The translations under genes and the position numbers were made by a program. A DNA stretch of 45,470 nucleotides from a virus: positions 1 to 45,470 of the IMG/VR virus record IMGVR_UViG_3300019487_000009. The stretch is one strand, 5' to 3'. The notes beneath the pieces are model-generated. The model was not told the DNA's origin, did not search any database, and saw nothing but the letters and a program-made list of their open reading frames with translations. Shown here in pieces: positions 3,098 to 45,470 of the stretch (the first letter of the stretch is position 1; each line of letters starts with the position of its first letter).

Positions 3098-3382
3098 ATG
3101 AGAGAAGTGTTCTCAAGGATTCCCAAGCAAACCATCGGCGTGGCCCTACTTGGCCTCGTCGGCACAGTGGGCGCCTACGTCCGTGCCGACTACTCCGCTA
3201 CCAAGATGACGGCGGAGAGCACCAAGGCCACGGTCGACACGGAGAAGATCGTCCAGTCCGAGCGATGGCAGCGGCAGGCGGAAGTCAATGTTCAAATCCT
3301 GGATGGGCTGAAGGAGCTGAACAGGAAGCAGGACAAGCTGATCCAGGAGATTGGCCGCCTACAGGGCAAGGGGGGCAAGTGA
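3098..3382 (+). CDS. Membrane-anchored coiled-coil protein (94 aa); i-spanin-like or other lysis accessory
   Basis: Internal ATG of ORF 3014..3382, 1 nt after the endolysin stop. TM segment IGVALLGLVGTVGAYV followed by a heptad-like, charged C-terminus. No embedded or adjacent lipobox ORF (o-spanin) found. Confidence 0.4.
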   Translation: MREVFSRIPKQTIGVALLGLVGTVGAYVRADYSATKMTAESTKATVDTEKIVQSERWQRQAEVNVQILDGLKELNRKQDKLIQEIGRLQGKGGK

Positions 3383-5358
3383 TCGCAGTCCTGGGCGGAT
3401 ATAAGGACCCGAAGCACGCGGAGGCCCTTCAAGACATCATACAGTGGGAGCGTTGGACCCGCGACTCCCTCTCAGAGCCGTACAGGGAGATGCTCGAGCA
3501 CTGGCGCCTGTATCTCAGCAAGCGCAAGGATCACCGCAAGACATGGGAGAAGACCTGGCGCGCCCTGACCCTCCAGCCCTACCCGTTCCTGATTGTCGAG
3601 GGCAACGCCTACGCAGTGTCTGACATCCTCAACTCAGCCGATCCTCTGGTTCAGGCCGAGGGGATTGGGGACGAGGATGTTTCGATCGCACGCAAGGTCG
3701 AGAGGTTGATGGATCTTACCCTTCGGATGAATCAGTGGAGATTGAGGACTGAGAACATCGTCCGCGAATTCACCATCCAGGGTACCGCGGCGATCAAGGT
3801 CACTTGGCGCCATGACGTGTCCAAGGTCTCAGATAGTACGCCGGACTCCGAGCGGGCATTTGAATCTACTCGTCAAGCCTTCGCAGACCTGGGAGTGGAT
3901 CTGCCGGACGATCCAGACGAATACGAGAAGGTAAGGGGGCAGGCTCAGGGGGATCTGCAAGTGGAGTTGCCCCAACATCCTGCCCGCATGTACAAGGAAG
4001 TGACCACGTTTCGTGGTCCGTCCTTCGACCGGGTCTCCATGTTCGATCTCAGGTTTGATCCCCTCGTGGAGAAGTGGTCCGATCAGCGCAGAATCATCCA
4101 ACGCATCGTCAAGACAAAGAAATGGGTTCTGGATCACACCGGGGAGGGGGCCGAGTTTCCATTCGACCCGGAGCAGGTAAAGTATTCGATTGATGCCGGA
4201 ATCAGCGACGGCAACAGCCAGGGTGGATTCAACGAGTGGCAGTTGGAAGTGGCCAACATGCTGGGCCTGGGACAGGTGGCCACAGGATACCCCAACAGGA
4301 TGGGGGAGCGCGAGCTGGTCGAGATCTTCGAGGTTTGGGATCAGGACGATGACGAGGCCCCGTACAAGGTGGTCCTGAACCGGCACGGCATCATCAACAA
4401 GGACCCGGGCGGGTCTCCCTACGGGCACGGTGAGTGCCCAGTCAGCCTGCTCCGGAACATCCCGGTCCCCGGGAGCGCCCTGGGCATGTCGTCACTGAAG
4501 GCCCCCAAGAGCCTGTTCTACGAGCTCTGGACCCTGCGAGACCTGCGGGTCGATGCCGTCACCCTGGCCACCCTGCCAGCCATGGAGAAGCTGAACGAGC
4601 TCGGCATTCCTGACGCCACCAAGGCCCTGACCCCGGGCGGGACAGTGTCGGTGCCGCGGCTGGGCGTCCTCAAAAAGATGGACGTTGGGGGCCCACACCC
4701 GGACATCTGGCGAGAGATTAGCGAGATCAAGTACGAGATCGACGACGTCACGGTGAACGCGAACGTGCGAGGCACGCCCGCCACGGTAGGTCGCGTATCG
4801 GCCTCCGAATCCGAGCGCAGATTCTCGAACGCCCTCACTAAGATCAAGGCCGCGGCGGTCAGATTCGAGGAAGAGATCCACGTACCGCTCCGTCAAGCGA
4901 TGTACCTTTGGTACCAGAATGGAGATGATGAGACCCTTCTTCGCGCTACCTCCGGGGACGAAATCCAGCGATACGGGCAGTCCATCAGCCGCGAAGAGCT
5001 CAGCCAGGCCTTGGACATGGATTTCAACTTCCGTGGTCCGAGCCGCATCGTCAACCGGGATATGCTGGTCCAGCAGCTTCTCCAGTGGTTTGGCACCTTC
5101 GGCGCGATGTTGAAGCCCTCGAAGCAGCTCAGCTTCGCCCGGCAGACCTACGAGGTAATGGGTCTGAAGAACCGTAACGACGTAATCCCGGACCAGGATA
5201 TTGAGATGGCCATGCAGGCTGAACTGATGCAGATGCAGGCCCCCGTTGCCCAGTCCGGGCAACCTCCGGCTCCGGAGCAACCTCTTGAGCCAGAGCAGCC
5301 ACAGCCACCGCAGGAGGCCCAGGTCCAGCCGGAGGGTCTCCCGCCGCAAGGGGCGTAA
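3379..5358 (+). CDS. Portal protein (659 aa) with Pro/Gln/Glu-rich C-terminal tail
   Basis: GTG at 3379 in a GTGA overlap with the upstream stop, SD aagggggg. Size and portal-like sequence character (LEHWRLYLSK..., long helical C-terminal half). The only approximately 650-aa non-repetitive virion-size protein apart from 35709..37547. Family assignment is from memory, not a search. Confidence 0.6.
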   Translation: MIAVLGGYKDPKHAEALQDIIQWERWTRDSLSEPYREMLEHWRLYLSKRKDHRKTWEKTWRALTLQPYPFLIVEGNAYAVSDILNSADPLVQAEGIGDEDVSIARKVERLMDLTLRMNQWRLRTENIVREFTIQGTAAIKVTWRHDVSKVSDSTPDSERAFESTRQAFADLGVDLPDDPDEYEKVRGQAQGDLQVELPQHPARMYKEVTTFRGPSFDRVSMFDLRFDPLVEKWSDQRRIIQRIVKTKKWVLDHTGEGAEFPFDPEQVKYSIDAGISDGNSQGGFNEWQLEVANMLGLGQVATGYPNRMGERELVEIFEVWDQDDDEAPYKVVLNRHGIINKDPGGSPYGHGECPVSLLRNIPVPGSALGMSSLKAPKSLFYELWTLRDLRVDAVTLATLPAMEKLNELGIPDATKALTPGGTVSVPRLGVLKKMDVGGPHPDIWREISEIKYEIDDVTVNANVRGTPATVGRVSASESERRFSNALTKIKAAAVRFEEEIHVPLRQAMYLWYQNGDDETLLRATSGDEIQRYGQSISREELSQALDMDFNFRGPSRIVNRDMLVQQLLQWFGTFGAMLKPSKQLSFARQTYEVMGLKNRNDVIPDQDIEMAMQAELMQMQAPVAQSGQPPAPEQPLEPEQPQPPQEAQVQPEGLPPQGA

Positions 5359-11336: not shown

Positions 11337-11627
11337 ATGAAACCGGGGGGGCAATACCGAAAGGGGGCAGCCGCGGAACGCCGGACCATCCGTCACTTCG
11401 AGGCCCTCGGGTACCGTGGCTTCCGGTTCGCCGGCAGCCACGGTGAGTTTGACGTGATACTGGTCAGTGAGAATCACGTTATCTTGGCTCAAATCAAGAG
11501 CGGTGACGCGACACCGACCGCCATTGAGATTGAGGCTATCAAGGAATTCAAGGTCCCAGACCAAGTCACGAAAATGGTAATACGATGGAAGAACCGCTCA
11601 AGAACCCCGGAAACGTTGGTCCTGTAG
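11337..11627 (+). CDS. Holliday-junction resolvase, archaeal Hjc-like PD-(D/E)XK nuclease (96 aa)
   Basis: GAAAERRTIRHFEALGY ... AGSHGEFDVILV ... LAQIKSG matches the G..ER...L...G...R...S.G..D.I...E/Q.K pattern. Confidence 0.55.
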   Translation: MKPGGQYRKGAAAERRTIRHFEALGYRGFRFAGSHGEFDVILVSENHVILAQIKSGDATPTAIEIEAIKEFKVPDQVTKMVIRWKNRSRTPETLVL

Positions 11628-11974
11628 GGCCCAGGGAATACCCGCGCCCCGCCACCATCCGCTCCATCCTGGCGGTGGACGAGGAAACGGAGCGGCGCAT
11701 CCGAAACGTGGCCCGAAAACTCGTCGAGGACCCGGTCCATCGGAAAAAGTGGCTCCAGGAAGAGCTCCTGACCCAGGCCGCCATCCTCGCATTCCGTGCC
11801 CGCAACTCCGAGAGCATCGACGAGATCACCAAGGCGGCCACCGCTTTCCAGCGCTTGGTCAGCGATATGGCCAAGAAGGCCCATGGCAAGAGCCACAAGG
11901 CCGGCGAAGGCACTGGCCCGGCCAATAATGATCCGCTCTCCCTGAAGGCGCCGCGGGGACCCGGCCCTGAATGA
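11585..11974 (+). CDS. Hypothetical protein; small terminase subunit candidate with ribbon-helix-helix-like N-terminal region
   Basis: Stop overlaps the TerL start (ATGA). IRSILAVDEETERRIRNVARKL looks like a strand-helix RHH element. The start codon is uncertain (43-nt overlap with the upstream gene). Confidence 0.35.
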   Translation: MEEPLKNPGNVGPVGPREYPRPATIRSILAVDEETERRIRNVARKLVEDPVHRKKWLQEELLTQAAILAFRARNSESIDEITKAATAFQRLVSDMAKKAHGKSHKAGEGTGPANNDPLSLKAPRGPGPE

Positions 11975-12705
11975 GTGGCCTGTGGGATGACGACGAGGAA
12001 GAGTCCAAGTCGGCTCGCAAGCTCGACTTGGAGATCACTCCGGCCCGGCGTCGATTCCTCGAGCAGTGCGAGGCCGAGCCTGGGATGTACATCTGGGGCA
12101 AAGACCCCGAGACTGGGATCTCCATCGTAAGAACTAGGGACGTTCACGACGAAGAGACCCCCATCAAGCCAATGCCCGATTGGGAGTACCTGAAATTTGT
12201 GCTCGGCCGGCTCAAGGACTCTAACCACAAGAAGAAGATCATCGACAAGCCCAGACAGCTCATGATCTCGTGGCTCTGCTTGCTTTGGCTGGACTGGACC
12301 AACCTCTTCAAGAATCACCGCCACTGCATGCTGAATAAGGCAAGCGAAGCCGAGGCGGACGACATGCTTTTCAGCCGCATGTCCGTCATCCACCAGAACC
12401 ATCCGGACTGGTTCAGGGCTTGGGCCCGGGTGAAGCACTGGCCCTCGGCGCACAAGATCAAGTACATGAGGACCGGATCTGTGACCACGGCCACGGGCGA
12501 GAACGTCCAGGACCGGGAGGCCCGCGGCGACCAGGCCAGCATCTTCTTGATAGACGAAGCGGCCCGGCATCCTTACCTGCGCGAAGTGGTGACCGCCATC
12601 ATTCCGATGGCGAACCAGGTCATCCTAGTCTCAACACCGGAGACAGGTTCGGCTGGGTCGCGCTACATGCACGAAATATTGACCGAGGGGGAGGAACTGT
12701 CTTGA
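11971..12705 (+). CDS. terL: Terminase large subunit, ATPase core only (244 aa; ends just after motif III)
   Basis: Walker A-like KPRQLMISW, Walker B IFLIDEAA, coupling motif LVSTPETG. The frame stops 19 codons after STP. Confidence 0.8.
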   Translation: MSGLWDDDEEESKSARKLDLEITPARRRFLEQCEAEPGMYIWGKDPETGISIVRTRDVHDEETPIKPMPDWEYLKFVLGRLKDSNHKKKIIDKPRQLMISWLCLLWLDWTNLFKNHRHCMLNKASEAEADDMLFSRMSVIHQNHPDWFRAWARVKHWPSAHKIKYMRTGSVTTATGENVQDREARGDQASIFLIDEAARHPYLREVVTAIIPMANQVILVSTPETGSAGSRYMHEILTEGEELS

Positions 12706-12905
12706 GTAAGTGTGACGATTGCGGCGAGGAACTGAGACCCGGGGCCTGGCCCTGGTGCGTAAGCTCCCGCAACCCGAAGGGCCACTCCACAGAAAAGAAT
12801 TACGGGTGGGCCTTCAAGCAAGGTCAGAATCAATCGCGCCGAGACGACTTTTTCCGGGAGCGAGGGACCGAGCCCTGGAAGGGCGTCGGAGATGTTACCA
12901 AATGA
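12702..12905 (+). CDS. Small Cys-containing protein (67 aa, CDDC ... WPWC) encoded between the two TerL pieces
   Basis: TTG start in a TTGA overlap with the TerL-N stop, preceded by the strong SD gggggagga. Stop overlaps the ATG of the TerL-C piece (ATGA). Confidence 0.55.
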   Translation: MSKCDDCGEELRPGAWPWCVSSRNPKGHSTEKNYGWAFKQGQNQSRRDDFFRERGTEPWKGVGDVTK

Positions 12906-14092
12906 GCCACTACAACCGGCCAGACGGCACTAAAATGACGAAGAAGTCGTCGTTCGAATTGCCTGTCGACGAGCGCGAGTCCTATCTCAAGTCGCTGCCA
13001 GCCGAGGCCGGCCGGACACAGGGATTCTCGAGCCGAGTCACTCCGCTCTCTCGTTGGGAAGTGATCTCTCTCGACTACTGGGCGGACCCCAGGAAAACTG
13101 CGGAGTGGGCCCTCGAGATGATTTCAACGATCGGGATGGCTCGGTACCAAAGAGAATTTCTGAGGAATTGGAAAGTTTCGACTCAGAGCCCGTTCTTCCC
13201 GGAGTACCTTGCCCGCGGAGGGGATGAGGCCTTCGTCCGAATCTTCAAGGCAGTGGGCAGTGTGACCCCCCTCGTGGCCGGACTCGACTTCGGACGGCGC
13301 AGGCCATCCTGTGTTGCGATGCAAGCGAACCCCCGCAAGACCCGCCTCTACGTCCTTAGAGAGTGGCTGCCGCAGAGCATAGGCGCCCGGGCCTTCTACC
13401 AGGTGGTGGCCTGGCTCTTCGGGGCCCTCGGCAAGGACAACATCGAGGCCGAAGGCCTGAAGCATATCCTGGACCTGGAGCGCGCCGCGGCGGAGGGCAA
13501 GGGGCCAAAGGTTCCGTGGTTCCACGGCCGTATCCCCTGGCAGCGGTTCGCCGGGTCGGAGGCGCTCAGGACACAGGAGCTAACCAGCGACACCGAGCAG
13601 CAACGGGTGCTGGACGTGTGGCAGGCGGCCGGTCATCCCCTGGGGGTGTGGGTCGAGTCGGTGGACGCTCGGGTCCTAATCATGCGTCACCTGCTGCGGC
13701 CTTGGCCGGCGAATAGCTCGCCTTACATCCTGATTGACAAGTGGTGCACGAACGTGAGGGCGGCCTTCTCGGGAGGGTACACCTTCGTCCGCCCAACGAA
13801 GCTAAACCCGGAGCCTAACAAGCCCCATAAGGACGGGTTTTACGACAACGTTATGGATGCGCTCATGTACGGAGCAGCGAACATCATAGACATCAAGCGC
13901 CCGGACTTGGGTGGGCCAGAGCCCAAGGTTGAGCTTGTCCCATCGGAAGAGAAAAAGGAAGATGTAAAGTCAAAAGGTACGTATTCGAGAGCGGAGCAAG
14001 TAGTCAAAAAGCCGGAATCGTTCTCCACGCCATTCGGCGAATTGGCGACCGAGCCCGGAGTGTACAATAGAGATGAGGGAGTGTGGTCATGA
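12902..14092 (+). CDS. terL: Terminase large subunit, ATPase lid plus RNase H-like nuclease domain (396 aa)
   Basis: WEVISLDYWADP...YQREFLRNW (lid region), VAGLDFGRRRPSCVAM (first catalytic Asp strand), KDGFYDNVMDALMY (last catalytic Asp). Internal ATG 12902 of ORF 12719..14092. Confidence 0.8.
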   Translation: MSHYNRPDGTKMTKKSSFELPVDERESYLKSLPAEAGRTQGFSSRVTPLSRWEVISLDYWADPRKTAEWALEMISTIGMARYQREFLRNWKVSTQSPFFPEYLARGGDEAFVRIFKAVGSVTPLVAGLDFGRRRPSCVAMQANPRKTRLYVLREWLPQSIGARAFYQVVAWLFGALGKDNIEAEGLKHILDLERAAAEGKGPKVPWFHGRIPWQRFAGSEALRTQELTSDTEQQRVLDVWQAAGHPLGVWVESVDARVLIMRHLLRPWPANSSPYILIDKWCTNVRAAFSGGYTFVRPTKLNPEPNKPHKDGFYDNVMDALMYGAANIIDIKRPDLGGPEPKVELVPSEEKKEDVKSKGTYSRAEQVVKKPESFSTPFGELATEPGVYNRDEGVWS

Positions 14093-14571
14093 GTCTGAGT
14101 CTCAATCAGGTGCAGATCGTCGGAAACGTCGGTAAGGATCCCGAGGTCAAGTACAACACGGCAGGAGATCCCATCGCCAGCTTCAGCGTGGCAGCCTCGG
14201 AGAAGTGGAAGGACAAGAGTGGCAAGGATCAGGAGCGCACGGAGTGGTTCAACGTGACCGCATTCGGCCCTCTCGCCAAGATCATCCAGGACATACTGAC
14301 CAAGGGTGCCCGCGTGTTCGTCCAGGGATCTCTCAGAACGGAAGAGTGGACCGACAAGGACGGGCAGAAGCGGCGCACCACGAAGGTGATCCTGTCGGGG
14401 CCGCGAGCGACGTTCCTGCTCTTGAGCCCGAAGAAGGACAAGCCGTCCGAGGCACAGGGGGATGGGGGCTTCCAAGCGACAGACGATGACGTGCCATTCG
14501 GCCTGACAGCCCTCATTCCGACCCTTCTTCCGCTGGCCGGGATGGCAACATTGATCGGGGGCCTGGCCTGA
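14089..14571 (+). CDS. ssb: Single-stranded DNA-binding protein with a hydrophobic extension after the acidic tip
   Basis: OB-fold N-terminus LNQVQIVGNVGKDPEVKY...TEWFNVTAFG. Canonical tip DDDVPF at residues 132-137, followed by GLTALIPTLLPLAGMATLIGGLA. ATGA overlap with the TerL stop. Confidence 0.85.
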   Translation: MSLSLNQVQIVGNVGKDPEVKYNTAGDPIASFSVAASEKWKDKSGKDQERTEWFNVTAFGPLAKIIQDILTKGARVFVQGSLRTEEWTDKDGQKRRTTKVILSGPRATFLLLSPKKDKPSEAQGDGGFQATDDDVPFGLTALIPTLLPLAGMATLIGGLA

Positions 14572-14614
14572 AGTGCTACCACGGCAGAGAGCACGCGCGA
14601 CTAAGGAGAAGAGC

Positions 14615-15403
14615 ATGAAGAAAGAATCAGGCCCAAGAACTCTGCTGCTGGACATTGAAACCTCCCCTAACGTAGTTTACTCATGGGGAGTTTACCAGGA
14701 AAACGCGCTCTCAGTTCAAAGCCACTGGTACCTTCTCAGCTTCGCGGCGAAGTGGAGGGGCGAAAAGAAGATCATCTACAGGGACCTCAGTAACTATCCG
14801 GGCTACAAGGGCGGAGACGGTAACGAGAGGCGGTTGCTCTCGGACGTGCACGAACTACTCGACAGGGCAGACATCGTCGTCGCCCACAACGGCGCCGATT
14901 TCGACGTGAGGAGGCTCAACGCCCGCTTCATCGCCAAAGGCTTTGCCCCACCGACCCCGTACGTAACAGTCGACACCAAGAGGGATCTGGCTCGGGTTGC
15001 AAGCTTCAGCTCCAACAGGTTGAACTGGCTCTCAAAGCAACTTGGAATTGGGCAAAAGACGATGGAGCATCAAGACATCGCCCTGTGGCTGGGCTGCATG
15101 GCCGGCGACAAGAAGTCTTGGGCCAAGATGAAGGCGTACAACATGAATGATGTAGTCCTACTGGAAGAGCTTTACAAGATACTGGCCCCGTGGATCAGGC
15201 AGCCAAACGCCAACCTCTGGTTCGTGGGGGTCGTTTGCCCCAATCCAGCATGCGGATCAAGGAATCTCGTGCGCCGTGGCCTGGCCCGCAGCAAGACACG
15301 GACTTACCAGCGGTTTCAGTGCAAGGAATGTGGGGCCTGGGGACGTTCGACCAAGTCAACCAGCTCAGTGACCATCACACCCATCGCGGGAAACATCGGG
15401 TAA
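14615..15403 (+). CDS. DnaQ-like 3'-5' exonuclease (RNase H-like fold) with C-terminal zinc ribbon
   Basis: Exo motifs LLDIETS, VAHNGADFDV, YNMNDV. C-terminal CPNPACGS...CKECGAW. Start at ATG 14615 behind SD taaggag. Confidence 0.7.
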   Translation: MKKESGPRTLLLDIETSPNVVYSWGVYQENALSVQSHWYLLSFAAKWRGEKKIIYRDLSNYPGYKGGDGNERRLLSDVHELLDRADIVVAHNGADFDVRRLNARFIAKGFAPPTPYVTVDTKRDLARVASFSSNRLNWLSKQLGIGQKTMEHQDIALWLGCMAGDKKSWAKMKAYNMNDVVLLEELYKILAPWIRQPNANLWFVGVVCPNPACGSRNLVRRGLARSKTRTYQRFQCKECGAWGRSTKSTSSVTITPIAGNIG

Positions 15404-30929: not shown

Positions 30930-32186
30930 ATGCCAGCCTCCCTCCCTACCCCGTGGCCCGGGGCGTACCCTGCTCCAGGCGTCATCACTGATGCTCAGAT
31001 CGCTCAGGGTGTCATTTCCGGCGATACCACGGCGCAGCTCAATGAGATCGCACAGGTTCAAAAGGGCCTGGTGTGGTTCAACCCCAACATCGCCCCCTTC
31101 CAGCGGTTGACGAACAAGCTCAAGAACCCTCGCGTGGTGGAGAACAGCCGCTTCTTCCATCTCGAGAAGCAGCGGTTGCCCCGTGAATCGGCCATCGTTG
31201 CGACGACCGGCGGAACCACCAGCCCCACGGCGCTCACACTTACTGCCAGTACTGGCGCTCGGTTTCGAGTCAATGACCTGCTCCTGAACGCCGACACCGG
31301 GGACATCGCGCTGATTACCTCGTTTGCTTCGGCCGACGTGGTCAACGTCACTTCCAACATCGGGGACAGCACGCCCCCCGTGCTGGCGTGGAACGCCGCT
31401 GACGCCGTCATCAACATTGGCAACGCCTACGAAGACGGTTCGACTGCCGGAGTATCCTTCCTGGTGGTGGAAGACGAGCGCAACTTCTTCTGCCAAATCT
31501 TCAAGGATTCGATCGAGCAGTCCCGCCGGTACATCAACACGGCGCTGTACGAGGGCGATCCCTGGGTCAATGCGCGCAAGCAGCTCGAGCAGGAGCATCT
31601 GCTCGGACTTGAGTACGCCGCGATCCTTGGCAAGCCTTCTCTCCAGCAGTCCGGTACCAACGACAAGTTCACGACCACGATGGGCGGCCTAGACTTCTAC
31701 GCCGACGTAAACGTTGTGGACTTCGGTGGAGACTCTACGATCAGTAAGGCCTTTTTCGACTCTGTCATGGTCGAGGCCCTTCGTGAGGGTCACTCCGGTT
31801 TTGAAAACCAGGAGTTGGCCAACAAGACGCTGTTCGGGTCCCATCGCTTCGTCGCGGCCCTCAACGCCATGGCGGACGACCAGATCCGGGTCGTGGAGCC
31901 CAGCGAGAAGACTTACGGTCTTCGTCTGATGCAGTACCAGGGTTCCTGGGGCCTGCTCAACGTGATCGTTGATCCGATCCTGAACAAGCCCAGCCTGGCG
32001 GATCGTGCCTACATCGTCGACCTTGACCACGTTCGTCCCGCGGAATTCCGCGGTGGCGCCACTAAGTTCGAGGATAACATCCAGACGCCCGGCACGGACG
32101 GTCGCAAGGCCCAGTACCTCTCCGACAAGTCGCTCGTCGTGGAGATCCGGCCTGCGCACACCAAGCTGTTTGGTCTCGCGCAGTAA
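30930..32186 (+). CDS. Major capsid protein (418 aa), HK97-fold type
   Basis: SD aggag. Size, position after the scaffold gene and before a strong hairpin. Sequence character typical of podoviral HK97-like MCPs as I recall (NFFCQIFKDSIEQS..., LEQEHLLGLEYAAILG). Confidence 0.8.
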   Translation: MPASLPTPWPGAYPAPGVITDAQIAQGVISGDTTAQLNEIAQVQKGLVWFNPNIAPFQRLTNKLKNPRVVENSRFFHLEKQRLPRESAIVATTGGTTSPTALTLTASTGARFRVNDLLLNADTGDIALITSFASADVVNVTSNIGDSTPPVLAWNAADAVINIGNAYEDGSTAGVSFLVVEDERNFFCQIFKDSIEQSRRYINTALYEGDPWVNARKQLEQEHLLGLEYAAILGKPSLQQSGTNDKFTTTMGGLDFYADVNVVDFGGDSTISKAFFDSVMVEALREGHSGFENQELANKTLFGSHRFVAALNAMADDQIRVVEPSEKTYGLRLMQYQGSWGLLNVIVDPILNKPSLADRAYIVDLDHVRPAEFRGGATKFEDNIQTPGTDGRKAQYLSDKSLVVEIRPAHTKLFGLAQ

Positions 32187-44857: not shown

Positions 44858-45470
44858 ACAGTCGTGAGCTCAGAGCCGGGCCGATAGTGCCGCTGGTGAT
44901 GGTGACACTGGCCATCGCCGGATGCTCAATCATTTCAGGCGCGGTCAGAAAATGTCTCCAGGACCCGACCTGCGCCGTGCCGCGGCCCGAGCCATCTCCC
45001 AGCCCGACGCCAACTCCGGTCCCGACGCCGACTCCAGAGCCGTTTCCGACCCCATCCCCAGAACCGATATGCGAGATCCCCGAGGGCATTACTTGCGAGC
45101 AGCCGATCGGTGAGGGCAATTTCTGGCGCCAGGTGGACGGGGCCATCCGGACGGTTCGCTCCGCCCGCCCCGACTGGTTTGGCCCGAGCCCGCTCGGGGA
45201 CGATAGCGTACAGATCAGGGCGAAGGACGGATCGAAGCTGGAGCAGAACAATCCCGCGTGGCACTTCGTTGATGCCGTGATTGAAGAGCTCCTGACCAGG
45301 GGCTTGTGCGCCAGACGCGAGGGAGAAGAGATTGCGGTCGCTCGCCCGGAGACTGGGATCTACGAGGCCTACCATGTTGTGATCCAGGCTCCGCCATTGG
45401 CGCCTCGCACGGCCTACGGCCAGGGCATGTTCAAGGCCTGGTGCAGGGTTCAGACGGTCCCCTCCGATCC
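44854..45470 (+). CDS. N-terminal part of the junction-spanning lipoprotein (continues at 124..487 of the circular map)
   Basis: GTG in a GTGA overlap with the upstream stop. Signal plus lipobox PLVMVTLAIAGC. Pro/Thr/Ser linker PEPSPSPTPTPVPTPTPEPFPTPSPEP. No stop before the window end. Confidence 0.7.
   Translation, partial: MNSRELRAGPIVPLVMVTLAIAGCSIISGAVRKCLQDPTCAVPRPEPSPSPTPTPVPTPTPEPFPTPSPEPICEIPEGITCEQPIGEGNFWRQVDGAIRTVRSARPDWFGPSPLGDDSVQIRAKDGSKLEQNNPAWHFVDAVIEELLTRGLCARREGEEIAVARPETGIYEAYHVVIQAPPLAPRTAYGQGMFKAWCRVQTVPSD
45348..45470. repeat. Terminal direct repeat, copy B; identical to 1..123
   Basis: Base-by-base comparison with the window start. Confidence 0.95.

Follow-up and report, generated by a model that had tools for sequence, protein, structure and literature searches.

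The virus genome recorded in IMG/VR as IMGVR_UViG_3300019487_000009 (positions 1 to 45,470, a stretch of 45,470 nucleotides (nt) that was analyzed whole and is referred to below as the window) carries a large terminase subunit (TerL) that is encoded in pieces. An N-terminal piece (TerL-N) and a C-terminal piece (TerL-C) are separate open reading frames (ORFs), and a third ORF, for a putative zinc-ribbon protein of 67 amino acids (aa), lies in the gap between them. The genes and the features within them are:

11971-12705, + strand: TerL-N, 244 aa, ATG start, frame 1; N-terminal arm and ASCE ATPase core
12690-12695, + strand: GGAGGA Shine-Dalgarno sequence, inside the end of TerL-N and 6 nt 5' of the zinc-ribbon TTG
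12702-12905, + strand: zinc-ribbon ORF, 67 aa, TTG start, frame 0
12902-14092, + strand: TerL-C, 396 aa, ATG start, frame 2
12902-13021, + strand: N-terminal extension of TerL-C (aa 1-40), with ERESxLKxLP conserved in the clade
13022-13171, + strand: TerL-C aa 41-90, beta-hairpin GFSSRV..WEVISLDYWADP and helices ..YQREFLRNW
13271-13888, + strand: RNase H-like TerL nuclease domain of TerL-C, placed by an AlphaFold2 model, Foldseek and alignment with SPP1 G2P
13889-14092, + strand: C-terminal tail of TerL-C, disordered, containing the conserved peptides YSR and FS(S/T)PFG

The frame order is 1>0>2, so that each ORF is shifted by -1 against the preceding one, and both junctions are stop/start overlaps: cTTGA at the first (TTG 12702-12704, TGA 12703-12705) and aATGA at the second (ATG 12902-12904, TGA 12903-12905). 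A GGAG stands about 11 nt 5' of the TerL-C ATG at 12902. A first-pass annotation of the sequence had described the three ORFs, the -1 shifts, both overlaps, the good Shine-Dalgarno sequence before the middle ORF and the GGAG before the third; coordinates and frames were recomputed and came out identical, and both ribosome-binding sequences are there. The terminase motifs it had quoted are also all present (DKPRQLMISW, IFLIDEAA, LVSTPETG, WEVISLDYWADP, YQREFLRNW, VAGLDFGRRRPSCVAM and KDGFYDNVMDALMY), and TerL-N ends where it was said to end, although the distance is 21 residues past STP instead of 19 codons after motif III, a trivial difference. We read the locus as a two-chain TerL whose genes are in pieces and separately translated, whose products would assemble in trans, and whose gap holds a zinc-ribbon gene (probability about 0.8).

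TerL-N matches the TerL family PHROG 2 (E = 1.2e-7). In Pfam, it reaches Terminase_6N below threshold only, and TerL-C has no match. The motifs of TerL-N are a deviant Walker A (D92-K93-P-R95-Q96-L-M-I-S100), a Walker B (IFLID195-E196) and a motif III (S221-T222-P223), and DKPRQLMIS, IFLIDE and VSTP are unvarying in 12 TerL-N homologues. Invariant across the clade of the window are K93, R95, Q96, D195, E196 and S221-T222-P223 of TerL-N, together with D129 (GLDFG), E220 and D319 (DNVMDAL) of TerL-C. The Walker A lysine is displaced, the invariant K93 (DKPRQ) lying three residues upstream of the canonical GK(T/S) position, in a manner we take to be reminiscent of lambda gpA. An AlphaFold2 model of TerL-C, built with 8 homologues, has a predicted local distance difference test score (pLDDT) of 80-93 over aa 100-340, and its best matches in the PDB by Foldseek are the terminase nucleases of D6E, SPP1 and P22 (probability 1.00, template modelling (TM) score <=0.63 on the target), with RuvC next after the terminases, as expected for the fold. 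The model and the invariant acidic residues bear out the earlier claim that ORF 12902-14092 carries the rest of TerL, including its RNase H-like nuclease.

Single-chain relatives of the pair connect it to structurally characterized packaging enzymes. The model of one of them, P0058 (595 aa), has a pLDDT of 89.9 and a predicted TM score (pTM) of 0.86, and packaging ATPases or large terminases account for 46 of its 46 best PDB matches, many of which span both domains; D6E, T4 gp17, Sf6 gp2, T7 gp19, HK97, P74-26, phi28 gp11, SPP1, P22 and G20c are among them. A profile of 39 single-chain relatives (A8) matches T4 gp17 at E = 4.6e-27, pairing its K-s-R-Q-m, DEaaf and STPng with SRQLGKT (161-167), IDECAF (254-259) and TTTPNG (285-290). 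The same profile matches the SPP1 nuclease (G2P) at E = 1.5e-8 with both Asp motifs covered, the P74-26 ATPase domain at E = 2.7e-4 in an alignment that crosses the break, and herpesvirus pUL15 weakly (E = 0.057). The narrow alignments A1 and A2, used as sequence profiles against the PDB, gave no match, and tblastn with P0058 against 50,697 GenBank phage genomes returned only remote TerL matches (23-28% identity). Neither TerL-N nor TerL-C had a match in those genomes by tblastn, which leaves both without a detectable homologue among the cultured phages of GenBank, and an A2 scan of 185,579 genomes of bacteria and archaea found no relative, so that no prophage or host clue is available. Sequence and models support the interpretation of TerL-N and TerL-C as a large terminase in two chains. 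ATPase and nuclease do not share a polypeptide, as stop codons separate the two chains in the window and in 10 further lineages.

Profile alignment places the C-terminus of TerL-N at about K305 of T4 gp17, where the helix after motif III ends. On the other side of the break, the ERESxLKxLP segment of TerL-C aligns opposite a short, unconserved linker of the single-chain relatives, and the hairpin and helices that follow match E257-272 and H282-302 in the model of P0058 and fall within the crystallized P74-26 ATPase-domain construct (GINQTH..FHAASWDVWPERR..EFRQEYGAEF). In the published structure of T4 gp17, N-subdomain I ends near residue 313 and the ATPase domain at 360. These mappings to T4 and P74-26 put the fission inside the ATPase domain; TerL-N is therefore not a complete ATPase fold, and from the position of the break it is TerL-C that supplies the last ATPase elements along with the nuclease. 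The first-pass annotation had seen a complete TerL ATPase core in 11971-12705 and a split between motif III and the lid. The motifs of that core are present and the split does come after motif III, but the fold is incomplete, with its last strand(s) and lid in TerL-C, and the break falls within the ATPase domain and not at the border of ATPase and lid. TerL-C would thus provide in trans the last core strand(s) and lid that TerL-N appears to be without. What stands at the break point in fused relatives is a variable linker modelled with low confidence (P0058 residues 241-250, pLDDT ~62). The first 100 residues of TerL-C have low pLDDT when folded alone, which is consistent with an obligate partner.

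The split is a conserved trait. Homologues of the three products concatenated were matches to TerL-C only (389-396 aa, 48-54% identity); TerL-N has homologues in 12 clusters, all stand-alone proteins of 206-252 aa, and the zinc-ribbon profile in 25 clusters, all stand-alone proteins of 54-92 aa. Database searches with each of the three pieces found no homologue of any one piece fused to another. The order TerL-N, small ORF, TerL-C, SSB recurs in 10 further lineages (L001/L005, L002, L003/L004, L006-L011 and L013), as the first-pass annotation had proposed to check in related contigs. These lineages share ~46-55% aa identity with the window and keep real stop codons, and all three genes are under purifying selection.

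Beyond this clade, an exhaustive HMMER search with the TerL-N profile (A1) found 853 proteins at E<1e-3, and the following statistics cover the best 150 of these matches, clustered at 50% identity. Long proteins (441-727 aa, most of them 501-652 aa) make up 44 of the 150; they align colinearly with TerL-N and then TerL-C, run 186-478 residues beyond the projected end of TerL-N, and have no Cys-rich insert at the junction; the relatives of 575-652 aa are colinear in this way and have no zinc ribbon. Comparison with intact TerL homologues, also proposed earlier, thus leaves the 67-aa segment without a counterpart in single-chain relatives. The short proteins number 90 of the 150 and have their C-termini between -8 and +53 residues (median +2) from the projected TerL-N end. 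C-termini were placed by hidden Markov model coordinates; a global MAFFT alignment, in which the fragment tails scattered, was dropped. Such a bimodal pattern of ends is not that of truncation at contig ends, and by these end points fission is widespread in the TerL family. In a neighbor-joining tree, split and fused forms are intermixed, with 31 parsimony changes. This may hint at repeated fission, fusion or insertion, and is weak evidence at such divergence (25-45% identity).

Gene contexts in the wider family were retrieved with 15 sequences taken from a family alignment of 130. The fission site is empty in L016, where the two cistrons overlap by 8 nt, while in L036 and L039 the next ORF is unlike the zinc-ribbon protein and unlike the conserved part of TerL-C, but both contigs end within ~60 codons. 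Additional sequence at the site or in the module, within the clade of the window (first three lines) and outside it, is as follows:

L006 ~3510-3760, L007 3430-3714 and L010 1245-1502: extra ORF of 85-94 aa with an HELVHA motif (Peptidase_M78/IrrE N-terminal-like; Pfam E = 3e-6), inserted between TerL-N and the small ORF
L011 1938-2222: Cys-rich extra ORF of 94 aa
L013 4165-4272: extra ORF of 35 aa
L020 1057-1189: hydrophobic ORF of 43 aa
L025 1045-3485: ~2.4 kb of other sequence
L039 1117-1284: ORF of another kind

This variety suggests that the fission site behaves like an insertion hotspot.

Several members of the family have features of their own. Vibrio phage 252E42.2 (L038, MW824390.1), a podophage among the tblastn matches of P0058, encodes at 3435-5126, beside its portal gene, a 563-aa 'hypothetical protein' that is an unsplit and unannotated member of the TerL family, and ~100 related Vibrio phage records carry the same protein. 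The fused relative P0050 (727 aa) has an apparent mini-intein in its nuclease domain, within the catalytic-Asp motif (DGYYDN/CLSGDT...GVMVSN/CDDALGY, with slashes at its boundaries). In-frame stops occur inside the ATPase domain of the more distant members L019 (3468-4259), L023/L024 (3480-4550) and L035 (3264-4259), where homology resumes in the same frame, which suggests that these phages have reassigned a stop codon.

The protein in the gap of the window has the motif C4-x2-C7 ... W-P-W-C19 ... H, followed by a helix-like segment, YGW-F-QGQN-RR-F. The consensus of 24 members (alignment A7) is CxxCG-x(8-11)-W-x-x-C(P)...H/C...(Y)GW(H/K)F-x-QGQND-A-RR-E-A-F-x4-AADPFG, one subgroup being a four-Cys variant. 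No curated family was reached, and no HNH, GIY-YIG or LAGLIDADG match was found in the 67-aa ORF; below threshold, one member matched Zn_ribbon_3 (E = 0.023), and ribosomal L37e appeared at E = 0.2. The ORF evolves under constraint, with dN/dS of 0.2-0.67, which stays under 1 in each of the 8 pairs tested and is 0.2-0.25 in the two lowest, like the flanking TerL pieces; the values below 1 indicate a real, selected protein. Its gene lies between TerL-N and TerL-C in 11 of 11 lineages, also where extra ORFs have been added, and is start/stop-coupled to its neighbors at most junctions. A related group of proteins, P0041-P0045, has only the N-terminal knuckle (CxKCGxEYGIGDSPWCRD) in common with the family and differs at the C-terminus. 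One of their genes is immediately 3' of the portal gene in a phage with an unsplit related TerL, which hints at a link of such knuckle proteins to packaging or head assembly.

Whether the zinc-ribbon protein belongs to the terminase is the less secure part of our interpretation. An accessory (third) terminase or packaging component is the role we would tentatively assign to it, and a function associated with the terminase is plausible on the genetic evidence though short of likely. It is also quite possible that the TerL split is real and the zinc-ribbon gene a mere passenger, a moron or mobile-element relic in a permissive site with no role in packaging. A passenger need not, as this gene is, be fixed throughout the 11 lineages of the clade and never outside the gap between the halves, coupled to its neighbors at most junctions, constrained in close pairs to a degree comparable with the TerL pieces, and related to a knuckle protein encoded in the head-morphogenesis module beside a portal gene. 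A broader proposal, in which a large, mostly uncultured T4-type terminase family would normally be two-chain, with the fission site as a landing pad and the zinc protein as an obligate third chain that staples the halves, regulates them or links them with DNA or portal, seems unlikely in its full form. The 'extra small subunit' of the first-pass annotation is, then, a real conserved gene, whose membership in the terminase is only conjectural, and the split is common in the family where the gene is absent. The zinc-ribbon family and TerL-C share a 'PFG' peptide, in the family end AADPFG (12860-12905) and in the TerL-C tail FS(S/T)PFG ~20 residues from the end (14000-14092). A common docking site is one possibility.

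Four observations weigh against our interpretation. The copy in the window reads EPWKG where the family has a near-invariant DPFG, a loss that fits the passenger reading. The zinc-ribbon gene is absent from the fused relatives and from the split lineages L016, L020, L025, L036 and L039. The fission site in other lineages holds nothing, as in L016, or unrelated ORFs (M78-peptidase-like, Cys-rich 94-aa, 43-aa hydrophobic, the 2.4-kb insert and others), as a site open to passengers would. Finally, the module lies among recombination and replication genes (YqaJ, AAA_24/ERF, SSB and RNase_H_2), far from portal and capsid.

The last observation would suit a reading in which the TerL-like pair would act as a nuclease-ATPase in recombination or replication and not in packaging. 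The module sits between a YqaJ exonuclease with an AAA_24/ERF recombinase and SSB, and this synteny with YqaJ, ERF or AAA_24, SSB and RNase_H_2 is kept in all relatives. The rest of the genome makes such an enzyme improbable, and the features that bear on it are:

1-123 and 45348-45470: exact 123-bp direct repeat, found by sequence comparison
3265-5358: SU10_portal
30930-32186: SU10_MCP, the major capsid protein

The terminal repeat shows that the contig closes on itself and that the genome is complete, at ~45.3 kb with a GC content of 60% (relatives are 47-49 kb). The window also encodes a primase-helicase and internal virion proteins. This complete genome has an SU10-type portal and an SU10-type capsid protein of the HK97 fold, and no second TerL was found among its large ORFs with the libraries or with our own N and C profiles; on this survey TerL-N/TerL-C is the only large terminase of the phage. 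Single-chain members of the family, moreover, adjoin portal genes (L012 and Vibrio phage 252E42.2), and the sequence and fold of the pair are those of packaging terminases.

The remaining alternatives accept a terminase and restore it to one chain. Recoding by two programmed -1 frameshifts, by stop read-through or by translational bypassing might do so: the window shifts by -1 at either junction, the first of which follows a G-run, L001 and L003 have an in-frame stop at one junction, and the TerL of Streptomyces phage Hau3, with three ORFs and 10-nt inserts, is a precedent (PMC10732093). However, the frame relations vary among relatives (-1/-1, -1/0, +1/-1 and 0/-1). L001 has frames 1>0>0, with an in-frame TGA and GTG directly after; L002 has 0>1>0; and L003 has 2>2>1, with an in-frame TAG and GTG 9 nt further. 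Junctions across the lineages include TTGA, ATGA and GTGA overlaps, TGATG overlaps and gaps of 1-9 nt, and L006, L007, L010, L011 and L013 hold whole extra ORFs between the pieces. Such varying frames, junctions and extra ORFs exclude any conserved recoding signal as well as assembly indels. The junctions show no slippery heptamer, the predicted folding of the 301-nt junction region is no more stable than that of shuffled sequence (z = -0.66), and the product would bear a 67-aa insert that single-chain relatives do not have. We consider recoding very improbable.

We give still less credence to a group I/II intron or a (split) intein that interrupts TerL and leaves the mature protein single-chain, as in the terminases of Jug phage and Mic1. 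TerL genes are often targeted by introns and inteins (PMC12880540, PMC7156551), the family tree does not separate split from unsplit forms, and the mini-intein of P0050 is in a relative, elsewhere in the protein. In the window, a search of 12300-13400 against Rfam at E<=10 gave no intron, the ~200-nt interval is filled by a protein-coding ORF under purifying selection, and RNA structure is not in excess. The ends of the pieces, the C-terminus of TerL-N and the N-terminus of TerL-C, meet the linker of the fused relatives without intein-sized extensions, that is, without ~100- or 35-aa intein blocks and without C/S/T+1 residues. The least probable explanation, that sequencing or assembly indels (e.g., in the GGGGG run at 12687-12691) or decay to a pseudogene broke a single TerL gene, draws on the fact that two single-base insertions would join the frames (the open stretch begins at 12339 in frame 0 and at 12716 in frame 2), but it fails on 10 lineages from independent samples and assemblers that each have three genes with differing frames and junctions, on stand-alone homologues of every piece, on the intact state of the other long ORFs of the window (up to 1665 aa), on purifying selection in all three genes, and on the zinc ribbon that joined frames would add and single-chain relatives are without. 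The split is not an error, a frameshift, an intron or an intein; the first-pass annotation of three translationally coupled cistrons agrees with the separate genes in relatives, the stand-alone homologues and the lack of intron or intein signs.

The module is part of a longer gene cluster, whose other members next to TerL are:

11585-11974, + strand: upstream ORF of 129 aa, whose stop overlaps the TerL-N start (ATGA); directly 5' of TerL-N in relatives too
14083-14571: SSB, with a hydrophobic extension

The stop of TerL-C overlaps the SSB ATG at 14089 (ATGA), and five cistrons in 11585-14571 (the 129-aa ORF, TerL-N, zinc ribbon, TerL-C and SSB) are joined via 4-nt stop/start overlaps (ATGA, TTGA, ATGA and ATGA). 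No terminator-like or promoter-like site was found on the + strand between 9090 and 15460, which argues for a single transcript. The 129-aa ORF had no match in Pfam and PHROG searches and may, by its position, be a candidate small terminase. Opposite TerL-N, a 334-aa antisense ORF (11566-12570, - strand) is most likely a by-product of high GC, as the + strand ORF is the conserved one. The SSB of the window, like that of L001 (6196-6684), has ~23 hydrophobic residues (GLTALIPTLLPLAGMATLIGGLA) past the acidic tip DDDVPF, at which the SSBs of L002, L003 and L006 stop; a tail resembling a membrane anchor is odd in an SSB. Directly 3' of SSB, at 14573-15403, lies the gene of an exonuclease of the RNase_H_2 family, which has a CxxC...CxxC zinc ribbon (CPNPACGS...CKECG) at its C-terminus and is kept in several relatives.

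We hypothesize that the pieces are translated from one polycistronic message as separate chains that are joined neither at the RNA nor at the protein level, and that the overlapping stop and start codons favor coordinated synthesis of neighboring products. TerL-N carries the ATPase core up to motif III and the next helix, and TerL-C the last beta-strands, the lid and the whole RNase H-like nuclease. The break falls in a surface linker, variable among single-chain relatives, just past the equivalent of K305 in T4 gp17. From these complementary parts of the fold, we infer that the chains associate into a two-chain TerL protomer, which may package DNA via the SU10-type portal. The zinc-ribbon protein could bridge or stabilize the halves, or bind DNA or the portal.

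The pair has much in common with single-chain TerL proteins of the T4 gp17 type (Terminase_6N/6C; D6E, P74-26, Sf6 and SPP1 G2P). The motif order is the same, from the Q-motif region through the Walker A region SRQ, Walker B DE and motif III (S/T)TP to a hairpin and 'REY..F' helix and then an RNase H-like nuclease with GxDxG and D-A-x-x-Y. In the window, by contrast, the chain is broken past the helix after motif III to give two polypeptides, the Walker A lysine is off the GK(T/S) position, and no curated Pfam model is reached at threshold. The herpesvirus terminase is tripartite, consisting of the ATPase-nuclease pUL15, whose mRNA is spliced to yield one chain, of pUL28, which has a zinc finger, and of pUL33. 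The resemblance is one of analogy only, in that three or more kinds of chain, one of them zinc-binding, make up a packaging enzyme; pUL28 is large and unrelated to the 67-aa ribbon.

The closest mechanistic precedent comes from Aeromonas phage Aeh1, in which insertion of the homing endonuclease mobE split nrdA into NrdA-a and NrdA-b, whose products assemble via new terminal tails (Crona et al. 2011, PMC3045599). There, too, an essential enzyme is made as two separately translated parts with a foreign ORF in the gap, and it regains function when the proteins associate, with no splicing of RNA or protein. The enzyme here is TerL and not a ribonucleotide reductase, the ORF in the gap is a 67-aa zinc ribbon without nuclease motifs that is fixed across the clade, and assembly is proposed from the genes. 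Jug phage TerL genes have group I introns and their fragments are spliced to one chain (PMC12880540), and the TerL of cyanophage Mic1 has an intein and is repaired to one chain (PMC7156551). These resemble the window in presenting two to three co-transcribed TerL fragments in gene calls, whereas the window has no ribozyme or intein and its stops are conserved. In Hau3, the three TerL ORFs (g6, g7 and g8) are separated by 10-nt non-coding inserts (7 nt in two related prophages) in conserved sequence, and UUA-triggered translational bypassing to one chain was proposed (PMC10732093). Both cases have three consecutive ORFs in different frames, but the middle ORF of the window is an independent conserved protein and its break falls in a variable linker.

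The searchable literature, with most subscription journals outside its coverage, describes TerL genes in pieces as intron, intein or bypassing cases only, and no TerL split at the protein level. Within that incomplete literature, we found no earlier description of a TerL that is both split within the ATPase domain and accompanied, at the gap, by a conserved mini-protein that is not a nuclease. The first-pass annotation had called such a split unusual; 90 of the 150 best family representatives end at the same point.

To our knowledge, the large terminases studied biochemically or structurally have all been single chains. A natural two-chain TerL would demonstrate that the packaging motor can withstand a break at a defined loop, and would be ready-made for labelling, mutating and titrating the halves of the motor separately. 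It also raises the question of how assembly is controlled, possibly via the zinc-ribbon protein. TerL is the standard marker for finding and classifying tailed phages. With both halves below the Pfam threshold, gene calls fragmentary, and 60% of the best representatives such fragments, this lineage is probably under-counted and misplaced in trees in metagenomic surveys. The varied gene content of the fission site, in turn, suggests an unrecognized insertion hotspot in an essential phage gene.

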